The notes under the pieces were generated by a model, which saw only the letters and a program-made list of their open reading frames with translations, searched no databases and was not told the origin of the DNA. Below, in pieces: positions 28,475 through 58,482 of a stretch of DNA of 64,000 nucleotides. This DNA comes from Minisyncoccota bacterium. GTDB taxonomy: Bacteria > Patescibacteriota > Minisyncoccia > Phycocordibacterales > JAQTLZ01. How positions within the stretch are numbered: position 1 is the first letter of the stretch; each line of letters begins with the position of its first letter. The stretch lies in NCBI GenBank assembly GCA_028714635.1, contig JAQTLZ010000001.1, positions 15,650-79,649 on the forward strand, given 5' to 3'. The translations under genes were made by a program, and so were the position numbers.

Positions 28475-29512
28475 ATGGCGAAAATTCGAGTTGCGATTAA
28501 TGGGTTTGGCAGAATTGGACGGGCGTTTCTCAAAGTCTCTCTTGAACACAAGGAATTGGAGGTGGTGGCGGTGAATGACCTCACTTCGATCGAAAATATC
28601 GCGTATCTTTTAAAATATGACACTGCATATGGCACTTCGCCGTTTGAAGTGAAAATCAAAGACCCAACGACACTTCTTGTGGCGGGGAAAGAAATCGCCT
28701 ACATTTCCGAAAAAGATGCGACCAAATTACCCTGGAAGGCTCACGACATCGATGTAGTAGTAGAATCCACTGGACTTTTCACAGAATTTGCAAAAGCGAA
28801 AGTGCACCTCGACGCTGGTGCAAAAAAAGTGGTTATTACTGCTCCCGCAAAAGATGAGCCTCTCGCTGACACTCCATCCGGCACGTTCCTTCTTGGAATC
28901 AATAGCGACAAAATTAAATCCTGTTCAATTACCTCGAACGCTTCTTGCACCACAAACGCAGCAAGCCCGCTTATCGCAATCCTTCACGAAACAATTGGAA
29001 TTGAAAAGGCAATTTTGAATACGGTGCATGGATATACTGCGAGCCAGTCTCTCGTTGACGGCCCAAGTAAGAAAGATTTCCGAGAGGGAAGAGCAGCAGC
29101 AATGAACATCGTGCCTTCTTCCACAGGTGCAGCAATTGCTGTGACGAAAGCATTACCAGAGCTCGCTGGGAAATTTGATGGCATATCAGTGCGAGTGCCC
29201 GTCGTTACCGGCTCTATAGTGGACGTAACATTTATTGCAAAACGAAATACGACGAAAGAAGAAATAAACGACATCTTGAAAAAAGCCGCAACTGATAAAC
29301 GATGGTCAAAGACCTTCTCTGTAACAGAAGAACAGCTTGTATCAAGGGACATCGTCGGAAGCCCATTTGCTTCCATTGCCGACCTTAATTTCACCCGAGT
29401 TGTAGACGGAAATTTAGTAAAAGTAATGGCATGGTACGACAACGAAATGGGGTATACGCATACCCTGGTGGAGCATGTGGTACTTGCTGGGAAAGCAGAG
29501 ATTGACCAATGA
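28475..29512 (+). CDS. gap: Glyceraldehyde-3-phosphate dehydrogenase, type I
   Basis: MAKIRVAINGFGRIGR...SCTTN...AWYDNEMGYT; start at the internal Met, not the ORF-track start; the last ~20 codons look element-supplied. Confidence 0.9.
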   Translation: MAKIRVAINGFGRIGRAFLKVSLEHKELEVVAVNDLTSIENIAYLLKYDTAYGTSPFEVKIKDPTTLLVAGKEIAYISEKDATKLPWKAHDIDVVVESTGLFTEFAKAKVHLDAGAKKVVITAPAKDEPLADTPSGTFLLGINSDKIKSCSITSNASCTTNAASPLIAILHETIGIEKAILNTVHGYTASQSLVDGPSKKDFREGRAAAMNIVPSSTGAAIAVTKALPELAGKFDGISVRVPVVTGSIVDVTFIAKRNTTKEEINDILKKAATDKRWSKTFSVTEEQLVSRDIVGSPFASIADLNFTRVVDGNLVKVMAWYDNEMGYTHTLVEHVVLAGKAEIDQ

Positions 29513-29572
29513 ATTAGTAGCTTCGCTTGTCGGTCGAATTATCAGAATCGCTTTTCGCTATTCGTTCAACAG

Positions 29573-30148
29573 TTGTTTCCTCAACCGCGTTACCAGATTA
29601 TTTACGCCGATCCGCCCTGGCGCTACTCGAAGTTCCGTCATTGGCGCGTCATGGGCAAAGGCATCGCTGCCTATTACGAAACACTGACGACCTCGGAAAT
29701 CGCGGCACTGCCAGTTTCCAAAATTGCGGCCGGCGACTGCATCCTGTTTCTGTGGACGACGTTTCCGCGCTTGCCCGATGCTCTGGCCGTGATCGCGGCC
29801 TGGGGCTTCACGTACAAAACGGTGGGATTCACCTGGCTCAAACTCAATGCTCGGAACGGCAAACCGTTCTTCGGCATGGGCCACTACACCCGGAGCAATT
29901 GCGAAGTCTGCCTCATCGGCGTCAAAGGCAGGTCGCTGCGCGTGAGCAACCGCGTCTCGTCGGTGGTCTTTGCTCCCCGGCAGGAGCACAGTCGCAAGCC
30001 GGATGAAGTTCGGGAGCGGATTGTCACGCTCTGCGGCAACCGGCCCCGCATTGAACTGTTCGCCCGTGAACGGGTGTCCGGCTGGGATGCCTGGGGAGAC
30101 GAAGTGAAAAGCGACATTGAACTTGCGCCGCCATCGGAAGCGTCCTGA
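29573..30148 (+). CDS. MT-A70-family N6-adenine DNA methyltransferase (orphan)
   Basis: IIYADPPW motif; TTG start; first gene inside the element's left end. Confidence 0.75.
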   Translation: MFPQPRYQIIYADPPWRYSKFRHWRVMGKGIAAYYETLTTSEIAALPVSKIAAGDCILFLWTTFPRLPDALAVIAAWGFTYKTVGFTWLKLNARNGKPFFGMGHYTRSNCEVCLIGVKGRSLRVSNRVSSVVFAPRQEHSRKPDEVRERIVTLCGNRPRIELFARERVSGWDAWGDEVKSDIELAPPSEAS

Positions 30149-30211
30149 TCGTTATGTCTCTTTTCTCCAACCCTAAATTTTGGTTCCTTACTCATAACGA
30201 GGGGAACGCAT

Positions 30212-30808
30212 TTGTCGCTTTGTCGAAAGCGGAAGGGTTGGGGAAAAGGGAAGCTGGCGCTTCCATGGCCGTGCTTCATTACCATGTATTATTTCATCGT
30301 CTCGAAGGGCCTCCTCGATGCCAAGCACCGCAGAAGGATGGGCGTTGCAGTTTGGGAATTTCTTTGGTGCTTGGACCGCGTGACTAAAATCAATGCAGAT
30401 GGCCTGGGCCTTGTCCTCGGCGGCAAGCCGGTCAACCTCTGCGATTTCACCGGCAGCCTGGGGACTTCAGAGGTCACAGTCAGCCGCAACCTGCAAAAAC
30501 TGGCCCGCTGGAATTATCTCACGCTCGTCCATGCGCCCTACGGCATCGTCATCCAGGTGCCAAAAGCCAAGAAGAGGTTTGTCAAAAATGCTAATCCACA
30601 CGGAATCCACAGGTTTAGCGGAAATGATCGGCCTGGATTTATCAAATCTGCTCAACCTCCCTTCAGAAATGATAAACCTGACTTCAGAAGTGATAAACCT
30701 AATAAGAGAAGTAAGGATGAGAATGAAGATGAGAAAGGGCTTATCGCCATGAATGCACTCATCGAGGAAAGAAAACTGGAGATTTCACGCCTCGTAAAAT
30801 CACTATGA
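30212..30808 (+). CDS. Winged-helix DNA-binding protein (putative replication initiator or regulator) with a Lys/Asp-rich tandem-repeat tail
   Basis: GVAVWEFLWCLDRV...GTSEVTVSRNLQKLARWNYL wHTH-like region; TTG start with a GAGGGG SD, alternative ATG at 30284; C-terminal FRNDKPDFRSDKPNKR tail encoded by tandem 21-bp repeats. Confidence 0.45.
   Translation: MSLCRKRKGWGKGKLALPWPCFITMYYFIVSKGLLDAKHRRRMGVAVWEFLWCLDRVTKINADGLGLVLGGKPVNLCDFTGSLGTSEVTVSRNLQKLARWNYLTLVHAPYGIVIQVPKAKKRFVKNANPHGIHRFSGNDRPGFIKSAQPPFRNDKPDFRSDKPNKRSKDENEDEKGLIAMNALIEERKLEISRLVKSL
30654..30738. repeat. Repeat R1a: two tandem 21-bp units (TTCAGAARTGATAAACCT...) at the 3' end of the wHTH gene; copy of R1b
   Basis: ~90% identical by eye to 58052-58135. 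Confidence 0.7.
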
Positions 30809-31023
30809 CTGAAATTGAACAAATCCAAAATATTATGCTCGCCAAAGCCGTGTACGCCCTGAGCGAGATTCAGCGCACCGTTGGCCGGTTCAAAAACCAG
30901 AAACGCGCGCTCAACCGAATTGAAGCCGTAGCCAGCCGGTCCCTCCACGAGATTGACGTGCTCAAGGAGACGGTTGGCATGAAAATCAGGAACAGGGAAG
31001 GTCTCGGCACGATCAAATTCTGA
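30805..31023 (+). CDS. Hypothetical small protein (72 aa)
   Basis: 4-bp overlap with the upstream gene; its 3' end is duplicated downstream of the giant protease gene. Confidence 0.4.
   Translation: MTEIEQIQNIMLAKAVYALSEIQRTVGRFKNQKRALNRIEAVASRSLHEIDVLKETVGMKIRNREGLGTIKF
30931..31023. repeat. Repeat R2a (~93 bp), 3' end of the small ORF; copy of R2b
   Basis: ~88% identical by eye to 35651-35743. Confidence 0.7.
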
Positions 31024-31198
31024 CCTGTGGTTTTCTGGTTGTCGCTCAAGAGTCACACGAAGCATGTGCCTCACAACTTATTTGAAACCCCCATCCTCGC
31101 GTTCGCGAGAGCGGGGTTTCTTGTCCACATTGTCCCCCTTCCTTCACCGGTAGTGGATGCTGTATACTACATACTGATATTATTTCAATTCGAGAGGC

Positions 31199-34100
31199 AT
31201 GAAAACAATCCACGAGAAACTTCAGAACGGAAGCCAAGCCTACGCCGACTGGCACAACAAGCCGGCGCATCCGTATGTTCATGGAGCGATCTATGTAGCC
31301 GTCCTCTTTTTTGCTATTCAAGCGGTAGCTATCGACACGAATTCTCTTATTGACAGTTATTTTAGCTCAACATCTTTTGTTACAATTGCCGTCCGCTCGC
31401 TTGCCACTAATGTCAAAGCCCTGACAGACAAAGCGGTCTTCCTGGCTGAAGCGTTGCGTTCGTATCCGGAAAATCAAAGACCGGCGCTTTCCGCCGAACT
31501 TGAACAGACTCTCGCGAATCGCTTTGCCGCGCTCTCACGTCTTGCCGACAGCAACTCGCAGAGTTTCCTTTCCTCGATCTTTACGGCGGAACAGAGAGCG
31601 CTCATGCCCGCATCGGTTGCTTCCGCAATAGAGACGCCTGTCAATCCGAATGATACCTATACCTATCTGGTGAAGCATTCTGATGAAGGTCTTTGTGAAT
31701 CTCCGGCGCACTCCGACAATCCCAAAGCTCCTCCGCCTGCCGAAAAGCACTGCGATGCCCGCGGCATTTTCCAAGACCGCTTGAAAGGCAAAGACGGCAA
31801 CATTTTTGAAGCTCATTTTGGGGGCAAGAAACCGCGCCTCGGCGAACAAATCAAAATCAAGAAAGGCCAGAGAGTGGGCCAGCAGATTGTTGTATCGGCA
31901 GATGCCGATGCTACTGAAGTGGTTGCTCCGATAAAGGCGCAGTTGGGCGCAGGTGGCGCAGGCGCAGGCGGGTCAACCTCAAGCATGCCGACGACGGGTG
32001 TTAAAACCGTGCTCTACATGCTCGTCGGTTTTCCCGATGTCGTTGATACCACAGGATCAATTACGGGTACGGTAGGTGGAATACTTGCTCCGGGATTGCC
32101 GGGATCGTCTGGATCGTCACAGGTTAGCGAAGCTCAGGCTATGACTGACGCTCAATCAGAAATGGGAAAGGTGAATCAATTCCTGTCGGATAATTCCCAC
32201 GGTTTGACTTCATTTTCAACGGTCGTCACTCCGCTTCTTGTTTTGCCCAACACCTCAACTTATTATGCGAGCCATACATCCTTCCCATACGGTGATGACC
32301 TGATCCAGGCCGATGCCCGCGCTGCCGCCCTCGCCAAAGGGTATAACTATCTGGATTACACTCTTGATGCCGTCCGTTACAACGGCAGTTACGGCAATTT
32401 CGGCGGCGAAGCATACATTGGCAGCCGAGGCGTGTGGCTCAAGTCATCCCGCTTTACCGTGGCGGCTCATGAATTCGGCCACAACTATGGTCTTTTCCAC
32501 GCCAACACATGGGTTACTACTGATGGGACGACGCTTGGAGCTGGCGCGAATCAAGAGTATGGTGACTTATTCGACAGCATGAGCAGCAGTTCGTTGGGAG
32601 GATATTTCAACGCATTTGAAAAATATTGGTTGCAATGGCTTCCTCCTGCAAACACTACGTCAGTCACCACAAGTGGCACGTATGCTGTCAGTTCCTTCGA
32701 CCAGCCCGCTTTCAGTGCTGGACTCAAATATGCTCTCAAAATTACCAAAGATACCGATCGCGATTATTGGATCGGTTTTCGGCAGGGTTTCCCGGCAAAT
32801 ATCTGGGAGACGAATGGCGCTGAAGTGCTTTGGGATCCTTGGACAAATAGCAACGGCGGCAGCCAGCTTTTGGACACGAACCCTGGCGGTACGAATGGCT
32901 GGAATGACGCCGCACTTGTTGTTGGTCGCACTCTTGCGGATACCAGCGCAGGAATATATATAACACCGATACGTAAAAATCCGGCAAATGGGACAGTCCC
33001 CTCATCAATAGATGTGGTGGTAAATCTCGGCGCATTTTCCGGAAATGTCGCCCCAACCCTTTCTGTGGCGCCAAGCGCGACTTCCATTCCGATGTATCAG
33101 CCTGTTACTTTTACCCTGAACGCAAATGACGGGAACGGGGATGCTTTGGCATACTACTGCGATTTCGGAGACAAAACATTCAGCAACATGAGCGCTGGTG
33201 TTCTTTCTAAGGTATACGTTGCGCCCGGCACATTCACGGTTATGTGTGAAGTTTCCGACATGAAAGGCGGAAAAGCGACAGCGGCAACGAGTCTTACGGT
33301 AACGGCTGCTGCCCCTCTCAACAATATGTTCGCCAATGCTTTTGTTCTCACAGGCTCAGCAGCGAATGCGACCGGCGCGAATAATTACGCTACGAAGGAA
33401 TCCGGCGAACCGACTATCGCCAGCACGATCGGCGGCAAGTCGGTCTGGTGGACGTGGACCGCGCCCGCTTCAGGAGCGACCACCATCGCTCTCGCGGGAA
33501 GCAATTTTGATACGCTCCTCGGCGTCTATACCGGTACGGCAGTCAACGCTCTCACCCTCGTCGCTTCAAATGATGATAATGGAACTTCGCCTCGAAGCAG
33601 GGTTGTCTTTAATGCTACGGCGGGAACGACATACCACATTGCAGTAGATGGATATGGCGGGTCATGGGGAAACATTGCTCTTTCTGTGTCCGGGCCTTCC
33701 GCCACTGTCAATACAGCGCCGACTGTCGCCACTTCCGCCAGCGTTTCCCCAAGTCCTGTGACGGGAACCACCGCTACACTTTCTGCTCTTGGCACTGATG
33801 ATGGGGGAGAATCCGCACTCACCTATACTTGGGCTGTTACGGGCACACCTCCTGGTCCTGTCGTCTTTAGTACAAATGCAACCAATGCCGCAAAGATAAC
33901 CACTGCTACTTTCGACAAAGCCGGTACTTACAACCTCCAAGTTACTGTCAAAGATGCTGGTAATCTATCAGTCACAAGTTCTGTTACGGCAACAGTCAAT
34001 CAAACACTCTCCACTCTTTCTGTCACACCAGCTACGGCAACGGTTTTGACTTCCGGAACGCAACAATTTAGCGCGGTTGCAAAAGACCAGTTTGGAAATC

Positions 34101-35632
34101 TGCTCACCGTGGCGCCCGCCCTCACCTGGGCGGTTTCGGGCGGCGGATCGATCAATTCCGCCGGCCTCTTCACTGCTGGTTCCACCGCGGGCGGGTCGTT
34201 CACGGTCACGGCCACCAGTGGCGCGGTGTCGGGCACAGCCACAGTTACGGTAGGCGCCGTGCCAATTCTCACGACAATTTCCGTGTTCCCAAGCTCCACG
34301 CTGGTCGCGACTAACGGAACCAAGCAGTTTACCGCAACGGCCAAGGATCAGTTTGGTGTTGCGCTTTCACTTCAGCCAACATTCACTTGGAGCGTTACTG
34401 GCGGAGGTACTATTTCTTCCACCGGCCTTTTCACTGCGGGGTCCACTTCAGGCGGGCCTTACACTGTGGCGGCGTCAAGTGGTGGTGTCAGTGGCACGAC
34501 TACTCTCTCGGTCATCGTCATTCCGGTGCTAACGACAATTACCGTTTCTCCTTCCAATCCAACTGTTCAGCCGGGAGGAACCCAACAATTCACCGCGACT
34601 GGAAAAGATCAGAATGGCAGCACTCTCACGTCCCAACCGACATTCACCTGGAGCGTCTCGGGTGGTGGCACGATGAGCGCAAGTGGTCTCTTTACCGCAA
34701 GCGCCACCGCGAAGGGTTCGTACACGGTTACTGCGACAAGCGGCAGCGTTTCTGGAACTGCTTCCGTCAGTGTTCCTGCCGTCCTAAAATCCATCACTCT
34801 TTCTCCTTCCAGCGCTTCAGTGCAGACAAACGGAACACAGCAATTTACAGCCCAAGGTGTTGATCAGACCGGCGCATCCATGACCTTCGCCCCGGTTTGG
34901 ACGGTAAATGGGGGAGGCACGCTCTCTTCGAGCGGCCTCTTCACTGCCGGAGGCACAGCGGGTGGTCCATACACGGTGACCGTCACCAACAATCCTGTTA
35001 CCGCAACCGCCAGCGCTTCTGTCACAATCACCGCGCCAGCTCCTGTTCTCACATCGATCACTCTTTCTCCGATCTCCGCTTCGCTTGTTTCCGGAGCGAC
35101 ACAAACATTTACCGCTACCGCAAAAGATCAAAATGGAACTGCGATGTCTCCACAACCAAGTTTCACTTGGACAGCAACTGGCCAATCATCACTTGCACCG
35201 AGCGGTTCTACAGCGACCTACACAGCGGGCAACACGGCAGGCGCTTCCTTTGGAATAACAGCTTCTTCGGGAGGGAAAAGCGCCACCGCTCCTATTAGTA
35301 TCACGGTGCCTGTGACACCGTCTCCCCCGCCACCAACAGGGGGAGATGTCACTCCGCCTACGGTCAGCTTGAAACCTCCGCCTTCTAATGGTGACATCAT
35401 ACAGAGAAGTACAAGGACTCTTTGGGCCAACGCCTCTGACAATGCAAAAATTGCCAAAGTGGAATTCTACGCCAACACCACTTTGCTTTGCACTGTCAAA
35501 CGCTCCGCCAATTTTTACTGCAATTGGGATCCGACCGGTAGCAGCGTCACCTACAATCTCACGGCAAAAGCCTACGACACGTCGAATAATTCCGCCGTCT
35601 CTCCTGTGGTCACAGTGACGACAGTTCCCTAA
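31199..35632 (+). CDS. Giant secreted/membrane-anchored zinc metalloprotease (HExxH) with PKD, pre-peptidase C-terminal (PPC) and ~12 Big_2 Ig-like repeats
   Basis: N-terminal TM helix; AAHEFGHNYGLFH zincin motif; PKD-like YYCDFGDKTF; PPC-like domain (TTYHIAVDGYGGSWGNIALSVSG); repeated ~85-aa Big_2 units (GLFTAGSTAGGSFTVTATSG...TATVTV). Confidence 0.7.
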   Translation: MKTIHEKLQNGSQAYADWHNKPAHPYVHGAIYVAVLFFAIQAVAIDTNSLIDSYFSSTSFVTIAVRSLATNVKALTDKAVFLAEALRSYPENQRPALSAELEQTLANRFAALSRLADSNSQSFLSSIFTAEQRALMPASVASAIETPVNPNDTYTYLVKHSDEGLCESPAHSDNPKAPPPAEKHCDARGIFQDRLKGKDGNIFEAHFGGKKPRLGEQIKIKKGQRVGQQIVVSADADATEVVAPIKAQLGAGGAGAGGSTSSMPTTGVKTVLYMLVGFPDVVDTTGSITGTVGGILAPGLPGSSGSSQVSEAQAMTDAQSEMGKVNQFLSDNSHGLTSFSTVVTPLLVLPNTSTYYASHTSFPYGDDLIQADARAAALAKGYNYLDYTLDAVRYNGSYGNFGGEAYIGSRGVWLKSSRFTVAAHEFGHNYGLFHANTWVTTDGTTLGAGANQEYGDLFDSMSSSSLGGYFNAFEKYWLQWLPPANTTSVTTSGTYAVSSFDQPAFSAGLKYALKITKDTDRDYWIGFRQGFPANIWETNGAEVLWDPWTNSNGGSQLLDTNPGGTNGWNDAALVVGRTLADTSAGIYITPIRKNPANGTVPSSIDVVVNLGAFSGNVAPTLSVAPSATSIPMYQPVTFTLNANDGNGDALAYYCDFGDKTFSNMSAGVLSKVYVAPGTFTVMCEVSDMKGGKATAATSLTVTAAAPLNNMFANAFVLTGSAANATGANNYATKESGEPTIASTIGGKSVWWTWTAPASGATTIALAGSNFDTLLGVYTGTAVNALTLVASNDDNGTSPRSRVVFNATAGTTYHIAVDGYGGSWGNIALSVSGPSATVNTAPTVATSASVSPSPVTGTTATLSALGTDDGGESALTYTWAVTGTPPGPVVFSTNATNAAKITTATFDKAGTYNLQVTVKDAGNLSVTSSVTATVNQTLSTLSVTPATATVLTSGTQQFSAVAKDQFGNLLTVAPALTWAVSGGGSINSAGLFTAGSTAGGSFTVTATSGAVSGTATVTVGAVPILTTISVFPSSTLVATNGTKQFTATAKDQFGVALSLQPTFTWSVTGGGTISSTGLFTAGSTSGGPYTVAASSGGVSGTTTLSVIVIPVLTTITVSPSNPTVQPGGTQQFTATGKDQNGSTLTSQPTFTWSVSGGGTMSASGLFTASATAKGSYTVTATSGSVSGTASVSVPAVLKSITLSPSSASVQTNGTQQFTAQGVDQTGASMTFAPVWTVNGGGTLSSSGLFTAGGTAGGPYTVTVTNNPVTATASASVTITAPAPVLTSITLSPISASLVSGATQTFTATAKDQNGTAMSPQPSFTWTATGQSSLAPSGSTATYTAGNTAGASFGITASSGGKSATAPISITVPVTPSPPPPTGGDVTPPTVSLKPPPSNGDIIQRSTRTLWANASDNAKIAKVEFYANTTLLCTVKRSANFYCNWDPTGSSVTYNLTAKAYDTSNNSAVSPVVTVTTVP

Positions 35633-35650
35633 CAAGAAGCGCGCCCAAAA

Positions 35651-35743
35651 GCCAGCCAGTCGCTCCACGAGATTGGTGTTCTCAAGGAGACGGTGGGCAT
35701 GAAAATCAGGAACGGGGAAGGACTTGGCACGATCAAATTCTAA
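35651..35743. repeat. Repeat R2b (~93 bp) directly after the protease stop codon
   Basis: Continues in frame after the TAA and encodes ...SLHEIGVLKETVGMKIRNGEGLGTIKF*, homologous to the C-terminus of ORF 30805-31023. Confidence 0.7.
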
Positions 35744-35908
35744 CGCTGGTTTTGCGGCCACCCGGCTGCCTCGAAAAGTGGCTGCCAGTGCCGGCGTGCC
35801 CGGCAGAAAAGTCAGAGAAAGTTTTCATTGCGGGGCTGGTGAACTTGCATATACTCGCCATCACCTAAGCAAGTCGGGGCAGACAACAAGGTGAAAGGAG
35901 GAGGGGTC

Positions 35909-36418: not shown

Positions 36419-36423
36419 CGGCC

Positions 36424-39444: not shown

Positions 39445-39455
39445 GTGGTTGCCGC

Positions 39456-40622: not shown

Positions 40623-40706
40623 CCTAGCCGAAGACCGGCGCATCACCGGCGTAAGTCCGGCGTAACACCGATTTTTATATTTTTTAACTCCCTTTCAAAT
40701 CAGGAC

Positions 40707-42712: not shown

Positions 42713-42736
42713 ACGCTCATGCGAAAATGGCGCGGC

Positions 42737-43000: not shown

Positions 43001-43118
43001 GAACGATATTACAATACACCAGTATAGTATTATCAAGGGCAGAAATCTGTTAAAAAGCAGCGCTTATGCACACCTCTATTCAAGAATTTCTGTTATACTT
43101 GAGGCGTTGTAAATTTAA

Positions 43119-47912: not shown

Positions 47913-47969
47913 TCCGTTTCTTTTGCCATCGTCATGCCCAGAGCGATTATCGCTTCTTAAAAACAACCC

Positions 47970-50900: not shown

Positions 50901-51362
50901 AGCAACTCGGGAACATTTTCTGCCGGAACGAGTATGGTCACCCTTAATGGAGCGGGCGCGCAGACAATGAGCGGGGCCAACACTTTTTACGGATTGGCGA
51001 TCACTGGCGGCGGCCGGACCGTCTCTTTTCAAAGCGGCGCGGCTCAGTCAATCGCGGCAAACGGCTCGCTGGCCCTGAGCGGCTCTGCCGGCCACCTGCT
51101 CACGCTCGCTCCGTTGACTCCCGCTTCCGAGTGGCAGCTTCACCTTGATGCCGCCGCCGCTCAAGCTGTTTCGTATGTTTCAGTTTCGTATTCAAATGCG
51201 GGCGGTTTTGCCGAGGTGAATGCCGCCAACGGGACAAACAGCGATGGCGGCAATACCACAAACTGGAATTTCGGCGCAATCATCAATCATGCGGCGCGGC
51301 TGAAGATTTGGAATGCCTCCCTGCGAATATCAGGCGGTTCCCGCTTGCGCATCACACGCTAA
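47970..51362 (+). CDS. Giant (1130 aa) secreted protein built from autotransporter-associated beta-strand (PATR) repeats
   Basis: Signal peptide MKKLLLTLSLVSFIFLFSPRLAFA; many GAGTLTLSG.NT(F/Y)TG.T.(V/I).(S/A)GTL units; two near-identical ~40-aa segments (GVASVANVSGAFG.NS.VT.ANAA). Confidence 0.65.
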   Translation: MKKLLLTLSLVSFIFLFSPRLAFAATKYWSGTGTWNAANTNWGTSPGGPYNAATFNTGDDAVFEGSAGTVTVSAPNHPNSITFNKTGYTLNSGTLTLDGPSIAVSSGAATINSSIAGSAGLAKSGGGTLTLSGNNSFTGGLTVKSGTLEGTGSVNAFGGSGTGAITLGDSSGSANATLSGGAGPFANPISVASGNTGAATIIRNGVGGNSTFSGAVTLNSHNLVLNPGGNALSMSGGFTGAGNLAFNSSFNSITIQTGSVNNTGTITQSGAGAVTVSGGVGANVTDIIQNGTASLTISTTALTVNSGGTTLTNTSSNGSLLTVSGGVNGTGNLIIKNNTGTANAVTLSTNSVNNTGAVTNSGAGSGGATISAVVGVNVTGVVQNSASSSLTLSGANTYTGPTTVSAGTLQAGVASVANVSGAFGKNSTVTMANVAGAALNITGFNTQIGSLTGGGAAGGNVTLGSATLTVGGDNTSPAAYAGVLSGAGGLTKIGAGTLTLTGINTYAGATTIAAGTLNANSTSALGSGGAANTLIFSGGALQASGAITSPGTRTLTLTSTGLIDTNGQSVSIAGVMSGAGGLTKSGAGTLTLSAANTFTGKTSITGGALSVTNNGNLGATPGSVTPDSITLNGGTLQFTGGTTGQTATLATNRGITLGSLGGTLKITYTVASGSFNALTDTPSFVYSGIIAGTSGGNLAIQGGAGTNNGSNPYLFKFNGASTYNGNTTIDNATLTYFNSGSAGDNRLPASTVLTIINNGAFNICGQASGTRTQTLAGLIGDSTAKVGGTNQVNPAVLALNPSASSFTWSGVIGVTTVVDKTGINSLQSVVKSGAGTEIFAGQNTYAGATNVNAGVLRAGVASVANVSGAFGNNSAVTLANAASAVLDLADFNTQIGSLTGGGGTGGNVTLGSATLTVGGDNTSPAAYAGVLSGAGSLAKIGTGAFSISNTVTLGGDFTISAGTVSANSSMMNVAGNWSNSGTFSAGTSMVTLNGAGAQTMSGANTFYGLAITGGGRTVSFQSGAAQSIAANGSLALSGSAGHLLTLAPLTPASEWQLHLDAAAAQAVSYVSVSYSNAGGFAEVNAANGTNSDGGNTTNWNFGAIINHAARLKIWNASLRISGGSRLRITR

Positions 51363-51433
51363 ATTCCCTCACACATAGCTGCTTTGTCTTGGCGGATTGC
51401 TCGTCCGCAAGCTGTGGCGGCGCGATAAAAGAT

Positions 51434-51462
51434 AAAGCCCTTCTTTTTCAAAGAAGGGCTTG
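51434..51462. terminator. Terminator hairpin between convergent genes
   Basis: AAAGCCCTTCTTT-TTCAA-AGAAGGGCTT perfect stem; A/T tracts on the minus-strand side. Confidence 0.6.
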
Positions 51463-51492
51463 TGAAAGAACAAAAATACCAGTGAACGGTTG

Positions 51493-52452
51493 CTATTTTT
51501 CTTGTGCCGAAGGCTGAGACTGACCGGGGGTGTTGATGGTTTCCAGTTTGGCGGGTTGCGACAACGTGAGTTTCCCGGCCTCCGCCAAAAGCAAGTTGAC
51601 GGCATCGCACGTTCGCTTCAACACGTCCAGGCACGCCTGCATCGGCGCGATGTCCGCTGCTTCGGCATAGCGCTCAATATATTTGAAGCAGCCTCCGCGG
51701 TCGGATTCCTGCTCGAAGCCCAAAGCTTCAAGCAGGACCGCGCCGCCCAATTCGGCAACGGTCTCCGAGCGCCAGTGCTGGCCGCGTTCGATAAGGTGGC
51801 CGAGGCGGTCATCGGCGGCATGAATGAGCTCATGCGCCCATGTGGATAGATTTTTCACCCCAAGGGCGATCTGCTGGCCGCGAACGTACTTGCCCAGCGC
51901 CCCGCCCTCCTTCCCATTAAACGCTTCCACATTCAAACCCCATGCGCGGGCTACGTCGAGGAGCGGCAGAGAATTGATCCACTGTAACACTTCGGGGTCT
52001 GCGGGCGGGATTGCCGCCCCCTCCGTGACTTCGATGGCGAACACTGGCGCGGTTCTCACACCGAAGAGAACCGGCACTTCCTTTTCCTCGCCGGTTTCTT
52101 CATCCTTGACCTTGACGGCTTTGGTCATGGGCACGAGGATATCGAACGATTTTGCGCCTTTCTTCACCGTGCGTTCAACCGCGTTCCACTGCCTCATGCC
52201 GCGAGCATCGTTCGTATTGTTGAGGGCGCAGAGCAACTGATTGCCCCACGACCATGAGCGGCAGGGCACACAGTCTTTCCGGCGCACGAAGATGGGAGCG
52301 ATGGCTTTGGCGACATCGCCCCGCATGAATGCGTCCAGTATCTTTTGGGCGGTCTCTTCCGCCCGTCCGTAGTATTTCACGGACACCTCCTTTCTATTGG
52401 GTGTTAAGTGTGTTGGGAAGAAAATGACCCCGGCGGGGTCATTGAACTGCAA
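51493..52452 (-). CDS. ArdC-like antirestriction protein (ssDNA-binding N-domain plus zincin-like metalloprotease)
   Basis: ArdC_N-like W...N.LL...ARG...W...TVKKGAKSF; C-terminal HELIHA HExxH. Confidence 0.6.
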   Translation of the reverse strand: MQFNDPAGVIFFPTHLTPNRKEVSVKYYGRAEETAQKILDAFMRGDVAKAIAPIFVRRKDCVPCRSWSWGNQLLCALNNTNDARGMRQWNAVERTVKKGAKSFDILVPMTKAVKVKDEETGEEKEVPVLFGVRTAPVFAIEVTEGAAIPPADPEVLQWINSLPLLDVARAWGLNVEAFNGKEGGALGKYVRGQQIALGVKNLSTWAHELIHAADDRLGHLIERGQHWRSETVAELGGAVLLEALGFEQESDRGGCFKYIERYAEAADIAPMQACLDVLKRTCDAVNLLLAEAGKLTLSQPAKLETINTPGQSQPSAQEK

Positions 52453-52467
52453 TAGAAAAGAACTGAG

Positions 52468-52800
52468 TCAATAATCCTCAGGCAGGAGCACCGTCGTATA
52501 CATGCGGTTCCACTCGGTGATGACATAGAACTTCGTGCGCTTCATCGAATGGTAAATCGAGACGATCCGCTCGCCGTTTACGAGCGCCCGTTTGTTGGCG
52601 CTGCGGTCCTCAGCATCCAGATCGCCCCAGTCTCCATAAGCATGGCGGCTGATGGCACGCAGGACTTCTTCCGGTGACAGCACGGCGTTTGCGGCGGCGG
52701 TGATGACGACTTGTCCGAGTTCAAGCGGCTCCGGCTGGGAAGCCGCACGATGTTGTTTGGCTACTGGCATGCGACCTCCTTTCGATGTGATGCCGCTCAC
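52468..52800 (-). CDS. Hypothetical small protein (plasmid-associated context)
   Basis: 110 aa; 4-bp overlap with the primase gene; family not recognised. Confidence 0.3.
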   Translation of the reverse strand: MSGITSKGGRMPVAKQHRAASQPEPLELGQVVITAAANAVLSPEEVLRAISRHAYGDWGDLDAEDRSANKRALVNGERIVSIYHSMKRTKFYVITEWNRMYTTVLLPEDY

Positions 52801-53852
52801 TGCAAGAGTTCAAGAATTTCGGTGGGGGAAAGCTGGTCGGGCTGCGGCCGTTCCGGCTTTAAGGCGACCGTCTGGACAAAAACCTTCGATGCCAGCTTAA
52901 CGAGCGCCTGCTCCTGGCCGGCTTGCCCGACTTTGCCGGCGTCGAGCATGAAGATAACTCTGCCATTCTTGCCAACCACCTGGGCAATCAAAGCGGCTTG
53001 CACGTCCGAAAGAAACCAGCCGGTGATGGCTACTACTCTGTGAATGCCGGCTTGCCATACTGTGAAGCATCCGAAATATCCTTCGACCACGACCAGCGGC
53101 GCACCCGGTTCCGCCTTGGCTGCGCGGTGCAGATTGAAGACTTCCACGTTCTTCCTGAATCCTTTGGGGAGCTTGTACTTCGGTGTGTCGTCCGACGGCG
53201 TGCCAGGAAAGCGTCCGGCATAACCGACAAGCTCGCCACCGATATTGTGAATCGGAATGACGATCCGCCCGGTCATGGTGCCTTTCTCACAGAAGCCGAG
53301 GCCAAACGTTTCAACGGTCTCTTTCGTGAGTCCGCGTTCTTGCAAATACGGATGCGCCGTGTTGAGATTCTTCAATGCAAATCCGAGCGGCTTGTTGGGC
53401 GCGTCGGATTCTTCCTGCTGCTTTGGTGTCTCCGCTGGCGGACTTGTTGGCTCCGGCTTTTCGACCGGCGGGCATGCTGGCTTCTGTGGTTCTGACGTGG
53501 CCGGTGCCTTCGGCGTATTCTCCGCGGGCTTTTTCCCCTTGGATGAATCGACCGAAAACCACTTCTGAATCAAGAGCGCGGCATTACGGATGTTCACGTT
53601 CTCTTTCTTTGCCACGAAATCCAGAATGTTGCCGCCTGCTTGGCATTCCCCGAAACAGTTGTAGCAGTTCTTCGCTACGCTCACTCGAAACTGCGTCGGG
53701 TTGTGTCCGCCATGCAGCGGACACGGGCCGTTCAACGTATCGCCGGTTCGCTTGAGGCTCGCCGTGATGCCGTAATGATCCAAAATCTGCAGGATCGTCA
53801 CGGACTGCTTGACCTGCTTGAAATCGACAAACTCTCCCTTGCCTTTTGGCAT
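52797..53852 (-). CDS. DNA primase (CHC2 zinc finger plus Toprim), plasmid/phage type
   Basis: CPLHGGHNPTQFRV...CFGEC..GGN CHC2 finger; Toprim-like VVVVEGYFG...IFMLDAG. Confidence 0.7.
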   Translation of the reverse strand: MPKGKGEFVDFKQVKQSVTILQILDHYGITASLKRTGDTLNGPCPLHGGHNPTQFRVSVAKNCYNCFGECQAGGNILDFVAKKENVNIRNAALLIQKWFSVDSSKGKKPAENTPKAPATSEPQKPACPPVEKPEPTSPPAETPKQQEESDAPNKPLGFALKNLNTAHPYLQERGLTKETVETFGLGFCEKGTMTGRIVIPIHNIGGELVGYAGRFPGTPSDDTPKYKLPKGFRKNVEVFNLHRAAKAEPGAPLVVVEGYFGCFTVWQAGIHRVVAITGWFLSDVQAALIAQVVGKNGRVIFMLDAGKVGQAGQEQALVKLASKVFVQTVALKPERPQPDQLSPTEILELLQ

Positions 53853-53876
53853 GACTGTTCTCCTTTCTGTTGTGGG

Positions 53877-54671
53877 CTATTCGAATGGAAGTAAGAGCTG
53901 CACGGGCCAATTAGGAAATTCTATGAACTCCTTGCCGCGTGCAACTCGCCAGAACTGACCTAACGGCATTCTGAAGGTGCGCTCGATGATTTCTGCCGTG
54001 GCGCCGTGGTCCCGGATGAACTCGCTCTTGCTGTTGCGCATAGCGAGCGCCACAAGCGTCCGATGCTTCTTCAGTTTCTCTTTAAGGTACGCGCGTTGTT
54101 CCACGCGCCGGTTATATGGACTGGTACGACGATACAGGTAGAGGATGCGCTCGTGATCGCATGGCGTCTCAACATCAAGCGGACTCAAACCAATACAGCG
54201 CCCGAACGAATTCTTCGTTCCACTGCATGACACGCAGGTTCCCAGGTCAGAGACAGAAGCCGCGTGCTCAAATTCCAATGCGATTGGAGTATGCCTGTAG
54301 ATTTCCGTGACAGTCATTAACCGCCGTTCGATTGCCCGCTGCACGTCTGCGTTGGAAAACGCCGCTGCAATGCACTTTCGGGCCAGAGCGACTGTATTTT
54401 CGATTGCACTCCGTTCGCTCTGTGCAAACCAGCTTGGAGCGGAATAGAAGAGCAACTGCTTGGCGAGCGCGGGAACGTTGTTTTCAGCATATCCATTTCG
54501 TTCAAGCGCGCTCTTTATCATGCGAATGCGCAGCAATGCGCAGCGATAGCGGGCCAGGGTAATGAGCCGCTTGGCGCGCTCATGCTCCTCTCTTTCCTTG
54601 CGTGACTTCATGCAATCCCTCCTTTGAATGCGGCGGTTGTCACGCGCCTTTTGCCGAAACTGAATTGTCAA
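53877..54671 (-). CDS. Hypothetical protein
   Basis: 264-aa ORF (possible start at 54611); no recognised family. Confidence 0.3.
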   Translation of the reverse strand: MTIQFRQKARDNRRIQRRDCMKSRKEREEHERAKRLITLARYRCALLRIRMIKSALERNGYAENNVPALAKQLLFYSAPSWFAQSERSAIENTVALARKCIAAAFSNADVQRAIERRLMTVTEIYRHTPIALEFEHAASVSDLGTCVSCSGTKNSFGRCIGLSPLDVETPCDHERILYLYRRTSPYNRRVEQRAYLKEKLKKHRTLVALAMRNSKSEFIRDHGATAEIIERTFRMPLGQFWRVARGKEFIEFPNWPVQLLLPFE

Positions 54672-54743
54672 ATGAACTGAACTGAAAAAAGGGTAACATT
54701 GAAATCGTTTTTAATGTCAATGTTGGCACGCAATGCACAACAA

Positions 54744-55706
54744 CTATTGAATAATGTCCAGGAGCGTGGTGCTTTCCGATGCGCCATTGAGCAGTGGGGC
54801 GGTCAAAGTATTCTCCGAATTTAGAAACGATGTATCGGCAAAGAGGAAAAGCCGTGAGCCTTTGCCCTGGCTGAATTGCCGGTTCGCTTCGAGCAAGGTC
54901 TTGATGCGCGCCTGGCTTGTAGTCACGATCAAGACGCAAAAGCGCCTGATGTTGAAGTGGCGTTCGTGCAGCCCTTGTTTCCACGATTCCTGATACGCAA
55001 GCATTTTGCGAAAGAGGGAAGTTCGTTCAAAGCCTTCGCGCGCGACGGGCATCGTGGCCCGGTCGGCTTCCAAAAAGAAATATGCAGGGTTGTTTTGGTC
55101 CTGAAAGTGAAGTCCGAAAACCTTGTCCGGGTGGACGCCAAGCGACAGCGGAACGCCGTTGTAACTGCACCGCACATTCCATTTGAACGGGTTGTGCCTA
55201 TGTTTTGTTTCTTCGGGACATTGGGCAAGAATTTCTTCACTGTCGATGATCCGTACATTGGCGCGCTTGCTTCCCGTTTCCAATTTCAGCATTACTTCGG
55301 CAACCAGGAGCGTATGCTGCAAGAAAGGCCGCTTCGCCGAGTGGTTTTTGGCCTGCCAGTCGATCTTGCGGCGGGGGATTGAGAAGCGCGCGGACAGAAC
55401 ATCCGCGCCACGGTTTCCAAGAGCGTAGACCATTGTCTGATTGCCGTTCTGCCTATAGTAGTCGATCTGCGCGCGCGGGCGGTCAAGGAAGCGGGCGTGA
55501 TAGAGAAGCTGAAGGCGGCGCAAAATGTTCCGCGGACTGCCGCCGCAAAGCGCGGCGATTTGGTCGGAGCGTAGAAAGCGGTGCTTGTAGACCTGCTTGA
55601 TAATTTCCATGTCTCGCTCCGTAATATGAAAGGCGGGCGCTTCATGGGATCGCTCGAAACGCGGCCTGCGCGAAGATGCTTCAGTCATGGCGGAGGAATT
55701 ATACAA
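54744..55706 (-). CDS. Replication-relaxation family protein (Replic_Relax)
   Basis: ITERDMEIIKQVYKHRFLRSDQIAALCG...RRLQLLYHARFLDR matches the N-terminal wHTH of the plasmid replication-relaxation family. Confidence 0.6.
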   Translation of the reverse strand: MYNSSAMTEASSRRPRFERSHEAPAFHITERDMEIIKQVYKHRFLRSDQIAALCGGSPRNILRRLQLLYHARFLDRPRAQIDYYRQNGNQTMVYALGNRGADVLSARFSIPRRKIDWQAKNHSAKRPFLQHTLLVAEVMLKLETGSKRANVRIIDSEEILAQCPEETKHRHNPFKWNVRCSYNGVPLSLGVHPDKVFGLHFQDQNNPAYFFLEADRATMPVAREGFERTSLFRKMLAYQESWKQGLHERHFNIRRFCVLIVTTSQARIKTLLEANRQFSQGKGSRLFLFADTSFLNSENTLTAPLLNGASESTTLLDIIQ

Positions 55707-55736
55707 GCAAAAACAGCATGGCTATCTTCTCGCCGG

Positions 55737-56279
55737 TTACTTCATACCATTTTTGCTCCAGCGCTCGATTTTATCTTCAATCACTGCCCGTGGCATGGCG
55801 TAGCGCTCCCGCGAACGCCGAATCATGTTTTCCTTTTTGCCGTAGCGCGTGCCGGACGGGGGATAGGTCGTGGCGAGAAATGGCTCGCCGTGAACTCCGC
55901 CGTCAAGGATCTTCATGTACGTGTCATAGTTGTTCAAATCCATAAACTGAGTTGAGCGGAACGCGTTGCCGAATTCTTTTTCCAAAATCTCGGCGTCAGT
56001 GCTTCCAACCCGGAAAGAAATGATGCTGCCGACATTGCCAAGAATCGCCGTGCGGACTTCATTGGTAAGCTGGTCCATGTACTGGTGACTGAGCGTCAAA
56101 CAGAGCCGGTATTTGCGGGCCTCGGCAAGAATAGCCGCGAAACTATCCGTGGTGAAGTTGTGGTATACCCATTCTTTAATCTGGCATGTTTTGGAGATGG
56201 GACAATAGAAATTCGTGCAGGATGTGAAGGCGATGCAAAGCTTATCAACAGGAGTCGAACTTGTTGTCAGGCTTTGCAT
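55737..56279 (-). pseudogene. Truncated paralogue of the TraD/HerA-like ATPase (C-terminal fragment, no Walker A)
   Basis: ARKYRLCLTLSHQYMDQL... aligns with ARKYRLGLILSHQDMHQL... of 36424-39444; the reading frame begins just after the Walker B position; intermediate GC; abuts the AT-rich boundary. Confidence 0.55.
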
Positions 56280-56381
56280 TGGAAATAAGGAGCTCCGCTT
56301 GTTTGTAATTACAATTTGATGTCACAGAACGTGATCTCATACGTTGTAATAATTATAAAGTGTGGTAATATAATAAATACT

Positions 56382-56576
56382 ATGATAATCAACTGGACAC
56401 ATTTGATTGAGAAATATAAGGGAATGTGGGTAGCTCTCAAGGATGACGAGACCTCTGTCGTCGCCAGCGGCAAGACCGCAAAAGAGGCATTCCAAGCTGC
56501 TCTCAAAAAGGGCTATTCTCACCCGCTCCTTACTCGCGTACCGGACAAACTGACCGCGTTTGTCGGTGCTCTCTAG
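56382..56576 (+). CDS. DUF5678-family small protein
   Basis: MIINWTHLIEKYKGMWVALKDDETSVVASGKTAKEAFQAALKKGY pattern. Confidence 0.5.
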   Translation: MIINWTHLIEKYKGMWVALKDDETSVVASGKTAKEAFQAALKKGYSHPLLTRVPDKLTAFVGAL

Positions 56577-56589
56577 TACCTGCTCTAAA

Positions 56590-57009
56590 ATGAAATTCTC
56601 GTACAAGAAGTTGGCGACGGGACACGTTCGCCCGATTATTCAGGTAGAGGTAAGTCATAACGGAGGGCAAGCAATCAACTACTTTGCGCTTATAGATTCT
56701 GGCGCTGATATTTGTATCTTTCACGCAGAAATCGCCGAATTGATTGGAATCGAAGATATTACAACTGGAAGAAAAGGAACTGTTGGAGGCATTACGCAAG
56801 GCGAACAGCAGGACTACTGGATACATCCGGTCAGCATCAATGTCGGCGGCTGGAAATATGATCTGGAAGTGGCCTTCATGCCGACACTGTCACGGTTGGG
56901 GTATGGTGTCTTTGGTCAGAAAGGATTTTTCGATTCGTTTGCGATAAAATTTCGAAAAGTGAAGGGGGAGATTGAACTGGTTGACGAAACACAAAAGACA
57001 AAGGAGTAA
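56590..57009 (+). CDS. Retropepsin-like aspartic protease
   Basis: ALIDSGADICIF (D-S/T-G-A motif) and single-domain size; overlaps the 3' end of the DUF5678 gene. Confidence 0.65.
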   Translation: MKFSYKKLATGHVRPIIQVEVSHNGGQAINYFALIDSGADICIFHAEIAELIGIEDITTGRKGTVGGITQGEQQDYWIHPVSINVGGWKYDLEVAFMPTLSRLGYGVFGQKGFFDSFAIKFRKVKGEIELVDETQKTKE

Positions 57010-57700
57010 GCCTCGGGTTTATCGGCTTAAATCAAGACACACTGTTCCGGGACAGAATCCGGAGAAATGCGTCTTTCCTTTTCACTCGGAATGATATTAC
57101 ACGCTTGATAGTAGAGAGAATCTTGATATTTCCCGAAGATTGTTTCGTAACGAGTATCCTATCACAAATACTGTTGCAATGAAAATAGGTAATGCGGTAT
57201 AATTCTCCTTGTAGGAGTGTTATGGTGAACAGTCATTAGTAAGAGAAAAACCGATATTGTAAAAGTAAAAACTCTCGTTTTGAATCGGGGTATCAGGATA
57301 AAACCTTATACTCCTACAAGTTGAGGCGCATTCTTTCTACGAAATGAGTGTTCCTTGATACTCCGATTCAGGATAAGAGTTTTTTATTTTGGGTGGATTT
57401 AAATAGCTCTAGCTAATTCAGCAAGCTCCAAAATAAAGCTCAAAAAAATAACAATGAAAACTTTCATTGTCGGCGGATGTATAGCACTTGAGTGCTGTAT
57501 TGATGCCCGAGGCCAGAGAATTTGCTGGCCACTGGGGAAGAAACAGAAAACGCCCCCACCTATTAAGGTTAAGAGCGTTTTCATTCAAACGTCAGTGAAA
57601 GCTTAAGCTTTCAACGCATTACATCTTTAGCGGGATGTAATGTGTTTTTATTATACCCTTCGGTACGGGCAGATACCATATCAAAAAAGTGGATAGAAAG

Positions 57701-57913
57701 TCAAACCTTTTCCTTCTTTATCCATACATAAACCCGTATACCACGAATCCAAATCCAGACTAAAATACATAACAACGCGACAAGAAACCACCAGATTTGC
57801 GCGGGGGTATCTGGACTACTTATTACAAGCCAAAGAAGACCAAGAAAAAATAACAGAATGAAGGTAAATGCAATTATACTCTTTCCTTTTCTGCCTACTA
57901 ACCAGAATAACAT
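57701..57913 (-). CDS. Small hypothetical membrane protein (70 aa)
   Basis: Two predicted TM helices; low confidence that it is a real gene. Confidence 0.3.
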   Translation of the reverse strand: MLFWLVGRKGKSIIAFTFILLFFLGLLWLVISSPDTPAQIWWFLVALLCILVWIWIRGIRVYVWIKKEKV

Positions 57914-58051
57914 ATTTGAATCATAGTTCTTTCTGTGTTTTCAATCAAGTGGATAAATCAATTATGCCGTAAAGGGAGACGTGTGTGCTAATCCTCAAGA
58001 AATCCACAGGTTCAACAGATTTGCTAATCCACAGCTTTATCATTTCCGCCG

Positions 58052-58135
58052 AACCTCCCTTCAAAAGTGATAAACCTCGCTTCAGAAATGATAAACCTAA
58101 TAAGAGAATTAAGTAGAGAATGAAGATGAGAAAGG
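58052..58135. repeat. Repeat R1b: degenerate copy of the wHTH gene 3' end with two tandem 21-bp units
   Basis: ~90% identical by eye to 30654-30738; reads ...PPFKSDKPRFRNDKPNKRIK* in one frame. Confidence 0.7.
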
Positions 58136-58408
58136 AAATGAATTTGCAAACTTGGAAAGATTTGTTGGAGTCGCCCGCAGACGCCAGACATATTGACGAA
58201 CGTGTCCTGCGATTGTGTGCTGTCACTTTGTCTCTTGCCAAAAACTAAGACCAAGTAAATAATTCCAGCAGAGATAAATGTTCGTTGAAAAAAGAATATT
58301 CGCTCGTCTGCAAAGGTCACAATAAGAATTGCGAATTTTGTAGACAAGCGAGCGGAGGTAATTCAAACAACGCGGGATTTGTGTTAATCTAAAGCAATGG
58401 CAATATCA

Positions 58409-58477
58409 GCATGGCACCACAATGAAGTCGGGTATACGCACTCTCTTATTTGGCATGTGCTTGAGATGGGGAAGTAA
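58409..58477 (+). pseudogene. Displaced remnant of the gap 3' end (23 codons) at the right attachment site
   Basis: Translates to AWHHNEVGYTHSLIWHVLEMGK*, versus AWYDNEMGYTHTLVEHVVLAGK in the intact gene; shared GGGTATACGCA core. Confidence 0.6.
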
Positions 58478-58482
58478 ATTTT

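Follow-up and report, generated by a model that had tools for sequence, protein, structure and literature searches.

ICESt1 and ICESt3, two integrative and conjugative elements (ICEs), integrate in the 3′ end of fda. Elements of the tyrosine-recombinase type use the ends of genes without disrupting them; those with serine recombinases interrupt genes (PMC5704250). Tandem accretion is described for streptococcal ICEs and for integrative and mobilizable elements (IMEs), together with relics without integrase which are still flanked by attachment (att) sites and can be mobilized in cis, the CIMEs (PMC5704250, citing Pavlovic 2004 and Bellanger 2011). The mobile elements of Patescibacteria (the candidate phyla radiation, CPR) are poorly known. 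Relaxases are rare in them, with 109 found in 103 genomes, and an occasional acquisition of foreign elements has been inferred (PMC12102498). In a limited search of the open-access literature we found no prior description of the gene gap as an attachment site, nor of att sites of CPR prophages. Here we analyse a stretch of 64,000 nucleotides (nt), positions 15,650–79,649 of contig JAQTLZ010000001.1 (assembly GCA_028714635.1), which we will call the window; all coordinates refer to it. Between gap and rpiB it contains what is probably a decayed tandem array of two site-specific elements of the tyrosine-integrase type, now devoid of their tyrosine integrases. We call the smaller one E1; the larger one, E2, would combine a phage backbone with a mobilizable block of about 20 kb.

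The host is a genome of Patescibacteria, of Paceibacteria type. Its gap protein, a type I glyceraldehyde-3-phosphate dehydrogenase, has Pfam-annotated homologues with 71–91% identity, which belong to Patescibacteria/Paceibacterota wherever they are named; an exact match is MDD5356567.1, found in a contig of a 'Candidatus Pacebacteria' metagenome-assembled genome (MAG), with which the proteins of the window agree exactly. The protein ends in AWYDNEMGYTHTLVEHVVLAGKAEIDQ and its stop codon lies at 29512. A second gap end is found in positions 58409–58477, with the in-frame translation AWHHNEVGYTHSLIWHVLEMGK and a stop. When the gap tail (29429–29512) is aligned with this copy without gaps, 44 of 66 nt are identical; the next-best match of the tail in the window, both strands included, reaches 33 of 66. 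The similarity of the copy begins abruptly at GCATGG, with only 17 of the preceding 90 nt in agreement. Both ends share the 11-mer GGGTATACGCA, which has exactly two exact copies in the window, at 29450–29460 and 58430–58440. An original prediction, made from the sequence alone, had placed foreign DNA in the 3′ end of gap by site-specific recombination, with a displaced gap tail and a crossover core around GTATAC: these points are borne out. It had also described 58409–58477 as a decaying copy of gap, which has to be corrected, since its two parts differ in origin.

To the right of the core at 58430 we find tail C, with a peptide identical to the tails of P0001/L003, L010 and L011 (L numbers designate related loci). 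The closest gap proteins, about 91% identical and 340 aa long, end in GYTHSLIWHVLEMGK, which is the peptide to the right of this core and not the present end of gap. Tail C differs from L010 in 4 codons and from L003 in 9, all of them synonymous; one replacement is found with respect to L009. Because the peptide is that of the relatives and the nucleotide differences with L010 and L003 are synonymous, we take this right part to be the original host tail. The P arm, which consists of the 21 nt left of the core, is different: 16 of 21 agree with gap, and three residues of the sequence WYDNEM are altered, which is intact in 59 of the 60 tails of gap homologues listed (the other one has I for M). 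At the left junction the present gap ends in tail A, which differs from the native tail of the closest relatives. It is similar to the tails of other Paceibacteria, such as HTLVEHVVLAGSSVK, and over its 52 nt it has 82.7% identity with the attP of locus L092, described below. The reading frame of gap stays open through tail A up to its stop. As judged from these alignments, attL is best read as host gap, core and element tail A, and attR as element arm, core and original host tail. The crossover would lie in or next to GGGTAYAC, and the attachment site would be the final 22 codons of gap, approximately. Scans for tRNA genes and Rfam families found nothing in the region or in the whole window, so that the target is not an RNA gene.

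The original prediction had proposed a search for an empty site in related genomes, and it is found in three of them (L009, L010 and L011). In these loci gap is uninterrupted (340 aa) and is followed by rpiB-rpe-tktN-tktC, either directly or after one small open reading frame (ORF). Their flanking genes are 77–87% identical in nucleotides to those of the window, in the gene order given by its two flanks; gatB upstream of gap is also seen in L010 and L011, and L003 has the same native tail. Within the species itself no empty site was found: exact-protein look-ups of the flanking genes gave contigs identical to the window or a contig of a second MAG which starts inside the remnant. Between the original gap tail and rpiB the window has a 290-aa ORF (58483–59355), with a GC content of 0.34, an N-terminal signal-like stretch as judged by eye and no Pfam match. 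In L010 and L011 it is absent, and rpiB follows gap at a distance of 2 nt; L009 has a 104-aa ORF in its place. These differences indicate that the spot just 3′ of gap is variable even outside the att sites. The 290-aa ORF may be a relic of an older insertion.

The association of this site with tyrosine integrases is found in relatives. Locus L092 is the best metagenomic relative of the winged-helix (wHTH) gene of the window, with a wHTH protein which is 60% identical. It has a tyrosine integrase (Pfam Phage_integrase, 2.2e-24; PHROG integrase), followed after 150 nt by a gap mimic, AWYKNEMGYTSTLVEHVLKAGQSIL and a stop, which contains GGGTATACG, and then by a DnaD-like gene. We interpret this site as an attP with an imitation of gap on both sides of the core; it looks like the attP of a relative and not like that of the element in the window. 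Arms similar to gap, comparable to 58409–58429, are present in L092, L176 and L179. A pattern scan of IMG/VR for the coding motif WY.NE.GYT gave 11 matches. One of the viral contigs, UViG_3300014208_001117, has gap with attL (L182) and also a tyrosine integrase, 54% identical to that of L092, followed by a tail remnant and rpiB (L179/L187); its two sites have in common a 56-nt repeat which starts at the TGG of the W codon. Another one, UViG_3300025323_000513, shows attL (L183) and an integrase with attR (L176/L188), and the arrangement of integrase and attR is found again in a third contig (L175). The integrases of these IMG/VR prophages are 50–54% identical to that of L092.

An uninterrupted gap site (L173) comes from the same metagenome as L176 (3300025323). 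The two sequences differ in 5 of 18 nt in the arm and are nearly identical from GGGTACAC onward, past the stop codon. Since the switch occurs exactly at GGGTACAC, the position of the crossover is the one found in the window. This metagenome has the empty gap site together with the attL and attR of a prophage: the population appears to be polymorphic for a prophage integrated in gap, and its reads should be well suited to map the crossover. Taken together, the relatives appear to form a clade of temperate elements whose tyrosine integrases use the 3′ end of gap, with an attP in which an imitation of about 75 nt of the end of gap flanks the core. As the imitation extends to both sides of the core, integration would swap the tail of gap and the gene would not be destroyed. 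In the window itself no tyrosine integrase was found, either by Pfam on the ORFs or by tblastn with three integrases (E > 0.3), as the original prediction had stated; a family hidden Markov model of the gap-site integrases, run against the six-frame translation of the 64 kb, gave a best E of 2.6 and no relic.

A third gap tail is present inside the region. A scan with the core and tail C detected it in positions 56161–56208, with the sequence TGGTATACCCATTCTTTAATCTGGCATGTTTTGGAGATGGGACAATAG, which reads (W)YTHSLIWHVLEMGQ and a stop. It is identical to 58430–58477 in 35 of 48 nt, with a chance maximum of 26 of 48. Its tail B differs from tail C by eight synonymous codon changes and one non-synonymous: since the changes are mostly synonymous, this sequence has evolved as a working gap tail. 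Its position (attM) coincides with a drop in GC content. Both host flanks have 0.42, the stretch 29461–56160 has 0.561 and the stretch 56172–58429 has 0.408. The internal tail copy and the drop of GC at the same place lead us to consider the region as a tandem of two elements: E2 (29461–56163, 26.7 kb, high GC) and E1 (56172–58429, 2.26 kb, with a GC content like that of the host). The third tail had escaped the original prediction, which considered a single element of 29 kb with a sharp difference in composition throughout; the latter applies to the high-GC part and does not apply to E1. The left flank of attM was tried as a P arm and rejected: its best agreement, 11 of 23, is equalled by 4% of random 24-mers. 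This flank is coding sequence of an ATPase, and only the right half of attM is similar to an att site.

E1 has two intact genes, which code for a DUF5678 protein and, 13 nt further on, for a retropepsin-like protease; no mobility genes were found in it with Pfam. The pair may be an addiction or defence module which keeps the E1 relic in place. A fragment of a second wHTH gene is 86% identical over 78 nt to 30638–30715 in E2 and 73% identical over 146 nt to locus L186; this shared gene suggests that E1 and E2 are related. The 78-nt repeat (30638/58036) was also considered as alternative element ends or as arm-type integrase sites and was discarded: it belongs to the coding sequences of two wHTH paralogues, of which one is a fragment.

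We propose the following order of events. E1 would be adapted to this host clade and would have arrived first at the 3′ end of gap: tail B, most simply taken as its replacement tail, has nearly the sequence of the native one of the host. E2, whose tail is of a type common in other Paceibacteria, would then have integrated into the rebuilt end of gap, leaving an internal site P-core-P′. A later deletion, starting within the ATPase gene and reaching the border of the core, would have left the half-site now seen at attM. The same deletion would have removed the integrase of E2, since integrases of this family are encoded immediately to the left of the P arm. Cleavage by tyrosine recombinases takes place at the borders of the overlap region. 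The deletion ends at GG/TATAC and could be due to an aberrant integrase event, which is a conjecture. The array is probably immobile on its own: its cognate integrases are gone and the right end of E2 would be a deletion scar, so that it could not excise by its own cognate pathway. The outer sites are intact hybrids, and the integrase of a related incoming phage could move the whole array by recombination of attL with attR.

In the proposed scheme E2 would consist of a phage early-gene backbone, joined to the high-GC block, with a recombinase of Planctomycetota type and three giant proteins (Table 1). The backbone genes (MT-A70, wHTH and orf72) follow attL. The order MT-A70–wHTH is also present in L112. 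The wHTH family is large, with 1303 representatives in a library search: in L186 wHTH and orf72 come after an ImmA/CI/Cro lysogeny switch, in L092 wHTH is found just to the right of attP. We therefore regard these three genes as an early module of a temperate phage. Locus L131, which has an integrase, wHTH and a distant Replic_Relax, was considered as a model of an intact E2 and dropped as too distant.

The relatives found for the high-GC block belong to other phyla. We scanned the species genomes of GTDB with the Replic_Relax profile and took the best 80 of 277 confirmed loci (41–50% identity). These 80 belong to Acidobacteriota, Verrucomicrobiota, Proteobacteria and a few other groups, none of them to Patescibacteria. 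The family has a characteristic module: TrwB/HerA-like ATPase, Replic_Relax, primase, orf110, ArdC (ArdcN and MPTase), a conserved protein, a coupling protein of about 1040 aa and a large serine recombinase. Every member is present in the window, where Replic_Relax is 41–61% identical to the relatives. The closest locus overall is L184, with 61% for Replic_Relax, 55% for the primase and 68% for the ArdC-like protein; in relatives, proteins with ArdcN and MPTase-PolyVal occupy the position of the latter. The coupling protein aligns end to end with relatives of 1028–1042 aa (44–52% identity), and the conserved protein which precedes it is also called as a gene in Logan contig L172. The module of L048 is bordered by ordinary host genes.

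Two members of the module are truncated. The alignments of the relatives' ATPases (424–658 aa) all stop at 56165–56171, which is the core of the internal site: where the relatives have FIDE/FQNF, the window has KEWV/YHNFTTD. In the serine recombinase of the family, residues 164–346 of the relatives (496–556 aa) align from 39492, 48 nt past the stop of the coupling protein, and the catalytic domain is missing. Moreover, a segment of approximately 35745–51450 lies in inverted orientation with respect to the order of the family; it comprises the conserved and coupling proteins, the two serine recombinases and giant proteins 2 and 3. No inverted repeats longer than 8 nt were found at its inferred ends. 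Two giant-protein genes, one of them with PATR repeats, and the recombinase of Planctomycetota type are interleaved in the module. From its gene content we interpret the high-GC block as a rearranged and truncated mobilizable-element module. A Replic_Relax protein and a coupling protein with TrwB_AAD_bind are both present, the relaxase activity of the former being assumed. Genes for a mating pore (type IV secretion, such as VirB4) gave no Pfam match in the ORFs scanned in the region, nor in those scanned in L048. The block would thus be mobilizable at best.

Table 1. Coordinates of the genes and att sites in the region between gap and rpiB
Feature	Position	Strand	Basis or remarks
gap	28475–29512	+	type I GAPDH, 345 aa; host-derived up to the core, final 17 codons element-derived
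attL core GGGTATACGCA	29450–29460	+	same 11-mer at 58430–58440
Tail A, replacement gap 3′ end (HTLVEHVVLAGKAEIDQ, stop), P′ arm	29461–29512	+	element-borne
MT-A70 family DNA methyltransferase	29573–30148	+	orphan, phage-type; Pfam MT-A70 6e-30; PHROG 359, 4.6e-78
wHTH, winged-helix DnaD-like replication protein	30284–30808	+	phage early gene; PHROG 7498, 6.9e-24
orf72, partner of wHTH	30805–31023	+	56% identical to the ORF after wHTH in L186
Giant protein 1, 1477 aa	31199–35632	+	Pfam PKD, Big_2, Big_7; N-terminal hydrophobic stretch (by eye)
Conserved protein preceding the coupling protein in the mobilizable-element family	35909–36418	+	tblastn from L069, L058, L077 and L086 to 35759–36268
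Type IV coupling-protein-like ATPase, about 1006 aa	36424–39444	+	full length; Pfam TrwB_AAD_bind 2.4e-10, TraG-D_C
Truncated large serine recombinase of the mobilizable family	39456–40622	+	Pfam Recombinase and Zn ribbon only; catalytic domain (first ~163 residues) deleted
Small ORF travelling with the serine recombinase	40764–41120	+	C-terminal 57 aa share 49–54% identity with the ORF which precedes the recombinase in Planctomycetota
Intact large serine recombinase, 531 aa	41117–42712	+	Planctomycetota-prophage type; Pfam Resolvase 2.7e-20, Recombinase, Zn_ribbon_recom
Giant protein 2, 1597 aa	43119–47912	+	N-terminal signal-peptide-like stretch (by eye); C-terminus rich in Pro, Ser and Thr; internal repeats
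Giant protein 3, 1130 aa	47970–51362	+	autotransporter-associated PATR repeats, Pfam PATR 6.9e-37; N-terminal signal-peptide-like stretch (by eye)
ArdC-like protein, weak match	51493–52380	−	Pfam ArdcN 4.2e-4, below the curated cutoff
orf110, conserved small protein of the mobilizable-element family	52468–52800	−	after the primase in 34/80 related loci
DnaG-type primase	52797–53852	−	Pfam CHC2 zinc finger and Toprim; 32–57% identical in 52/80 related loci
Replic_Relax family protein, putative relaxase or replication protein	54744–55610	−	Pfam 1.8e-24; 1292 homologues
3′ fragment (~140 C-terminal aa) of a second TrwB/HerA-like ATPase	55737–56165	−	cut just past Walker B
attM, internal half-site: core variant TGGTATACCCA and tail B (YTHSLIWHVLEMGQ, stop)	56161–56208	+	boundary between the two elements
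DUF5678 protein	56382–56576	+	Pfam DUF5678 4.1e-9
Retropepsin-like aspartyl protease	56590–57009	+	Pfam Asp_protease_2 1.3e-4
Frameshifted 3′ fragment of a second wHTH gene	57985–58135	+	in E1
attR P arm, gap imitation AWHHNEV	58409–58429	+	element-derived, 21 nt
attR core GGGTATACGCA	58430–58440	+	exact copy of the 11-mer
Tail C, displaced original host gap 3′ end (HSLIWHVLEMGK, stop)	58441–58477	+	peptide as in the tails of relatives

The three giant proteins look secreted or anchored to the surface, as judged from their sequences. The second one has no Pfam match. The gene of giant protein 1 is bracketed by a direct repeat of 95 nt (D8, 89% identical copies in positions 30930–31024 and 35650–35744), which is the 3′ end of orf72; this bracketing suggests that recombination of two related elements introduced the gene. 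Inside the gene of giant protein 3 there is a 296-nt repeat (49155–49450 and 50496–50791), with 80% identity and copies 1341 nt apart, and giant proteins 2 and 3 contain many families of shorter repeats. In the low-GC host flank we have also noted two short GC-rich stretches (0.56–0.58), in positions 26102–26470 (− strand) and 28126–28377 (+ strand), which form ORFs; they have no Pfam match, and no Rfam match was found there.

Several observations weigh against a tandem array formed by tyrosine integrases. The internal site has its right half only, so that the order of events proposed above needs an additional deletion which ends exactly at the core, either by coincidence or as a secondary event mediated by an integrase. 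The role of a tyrosine integrase is taken from relatives which are 50–56% identical to each other, and only three lineages are associated with gap. In more distant integrases of the family (38–52% identical) no gap mimic is seen, although several of these loci extend only 12–600 nt past the integrase. The region also contains an intact serine recombinase, which might act on these sites. Finally, the attL junction (29450–29555) is seen only in the NCBI contig of the MAG, since the Logan contig starts at 29556.

Other explanations have been considered. The att sites may have the origin proposed here and the high-GC block may have come later, inserted into a resident prophage remnant or recombined with it, for example by one of its own serine recombinases, and replacing most of the phage genes in place. 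It is odd for a phage backbone, with only 1.6 kb left of it, to carry a plasmid-like block of 20 kb, the block carries two serine recombinases, and both the inverted gene order and the 95-nt repeats around giant protein 1 point to further recombination. However, no junctions of serine type or target duplications have been identified at the edges of the block, and its right edge coincides with an att core of tyrosine type and not with a site close to a recombinase. We consider such a late arrival of the block somewhat unlikely.

A more far-reaching scenario is rather doubtful. A mobilizable element of diderm phyla (of Verrucomicrobiota, Planctomycetota or Acidobacteriota type) might have entered a Patescibacteria cell and have been captured at the phage att site; a superinfecting phage which targets gap could then excise the 29 kb, and the coupling protein and Replic_Relax might allow their transfer. 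If this were true, the locus would record DNA traffic between a CPR epibiont and its diderm partner and would give a hint of the partner's identity. It would also represent a vehicle for gene flow between phyla which depends on the integrase of a phage.

It is improbable, in our opinion, that a single element of 29 kb was integrated at GGGTATACGCA by the 531-aa serine recombinase, which could then also excise it. This protein had been proposed as the likely integrase in the original prediction. It is a real large serine recombinase and the only intact recombinase of the region: it has PDB matches to serine recombinases, and its N-terminal RVSS aligns with the RVST of resolvase 3guv. The absence of a tyrosine integrase would also agree with such a role, and a common core of 11 bp is within the range of serine-integrase sites. 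But the gene is 11.6 kb away from attL and 15.7 kb from attR. Its nearest homologues, 63–70% identical, belong to Planctomycetota whenever they are named, where the recombinase sits at the outer edge of the prophage, with the same small ORF upstream and no gap gene nearby. The elements which share the core and an attP that mimics gap have instead a tyrosine integrase beside the site. Furthermore, the target gene is repaired and not interrupted, the arms imitate gap in register on both sides, and the third tail copy shows two insertion events. It is thus unlikely that the 531-aa recombinase made these junctions. There is a lesson for annotation here: a recombinase found in an island is not necessarily the one that inserted it.

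The assembly of the region has support from other data. Logan contigs (SRR22315509, SRR22315508) are identical to the window over 29556–42051, 50741–59935 and 58232–59930, the second MAG of the same species (GCA_028711105.1) carries the same attR, and attL has the sequence of a regular hybrid site. A chimera of assembly or binning, with high-GC DNA from a co-occurring genome of Planctomycetota or Verrucomicrobiota, would explain the sharp GC step, the gene relatives, all of them outside Patescibacteria, and an attL junction found in one assembly only, but it is highly improbable: there is host DNA with conserved gene order on both sides, each edge lies at an att site whose geometry is known, tail A is a gap tail of Paceibacteria type, in frame and similar to the attP of L092, and independent Logan contigs run from the phage backbone into the block and from there through attM and attR to rpiB-rpe. 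The independent assemblies (Logan and GCA_028711105.1) break at 29556, 42051, 50741, 58179 and 58232; the break at 29556 lies 44 nt after the stop of gap, that at 58179 about 45 nt past the repeated wHTH fragment. There may be strain heterogeneity at the att site.

The decayed tandem array has several implications. A recurrent site, the 3′ end of gap with its crossover at GGGTAYAC, and the corresponding clade of integrases are of use in detecting the prophages of CPR genomes and in fixing their limits. A CPR chromosome with approximately 41% GC contains about 20 kb of conjugation-type DNA, with relatives found in other phyla, which makes the locus a tangible and datable example of gene flow from one phylum to another. 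The high-GC block may also point to the epibiont's bacterial partner.

When compared with known systems, the locus is closest to the prophages, ICEs and IMEs which use a tyrosine integrase and the 3′ end of a gene. It has in common with them attL and attR with a shared core, an attP which supplies a new gene end, empty sites in relatives and, in related prophages, the integrase beside attR. It differs from them in its target, which is gap, in its host, which belongs to Patescibacteria, and in the loss of the integrase in the copy of the window. As in the arrays formed by accretion with CIMEs, two elements occupy one att site, the smaller one is a decayed relic which has no integrase and keeps its att site, and the outer attL and attR are proper sites. 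Here, in contrast, only half of the internal site is present, joined to a truncated gene, and the larger element has no cognate integrase either, although it keeps a coupling protein and a putative relaxase, both from an unrelated element family, and an intact serine recombinase. All the genes of the module of the mobilizable family with serine recombinases, found in MAGs of Verrucomicrobiota, Acidobacteriota and Proteobacteria, are present in the window; there, however, the ATPase and the family's own recombinase are truncated, the segment of the coupling protein is inverted, giant genes and a second recombinase are interleaved, and the phylum is a different one. The 531-aa protein has the full set of domains of serine integrases such as those of phiC31, A118 and SPbeta (SprA), but it is internal, far from the junctions, and nothing links it to the gap site. 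The presence of a foreign module in a CPR chromosome extends the finding of rare relaxases and occasional acquisitions in Patescibacteria (PMC12102498) and does not overturn it. The kind of element is thus a known one: what is new is the target gap and the phylum, a clade of integrases with its own att geometry, and the occurrence in a CPR chromosome of a module with relatives found in other phyla.

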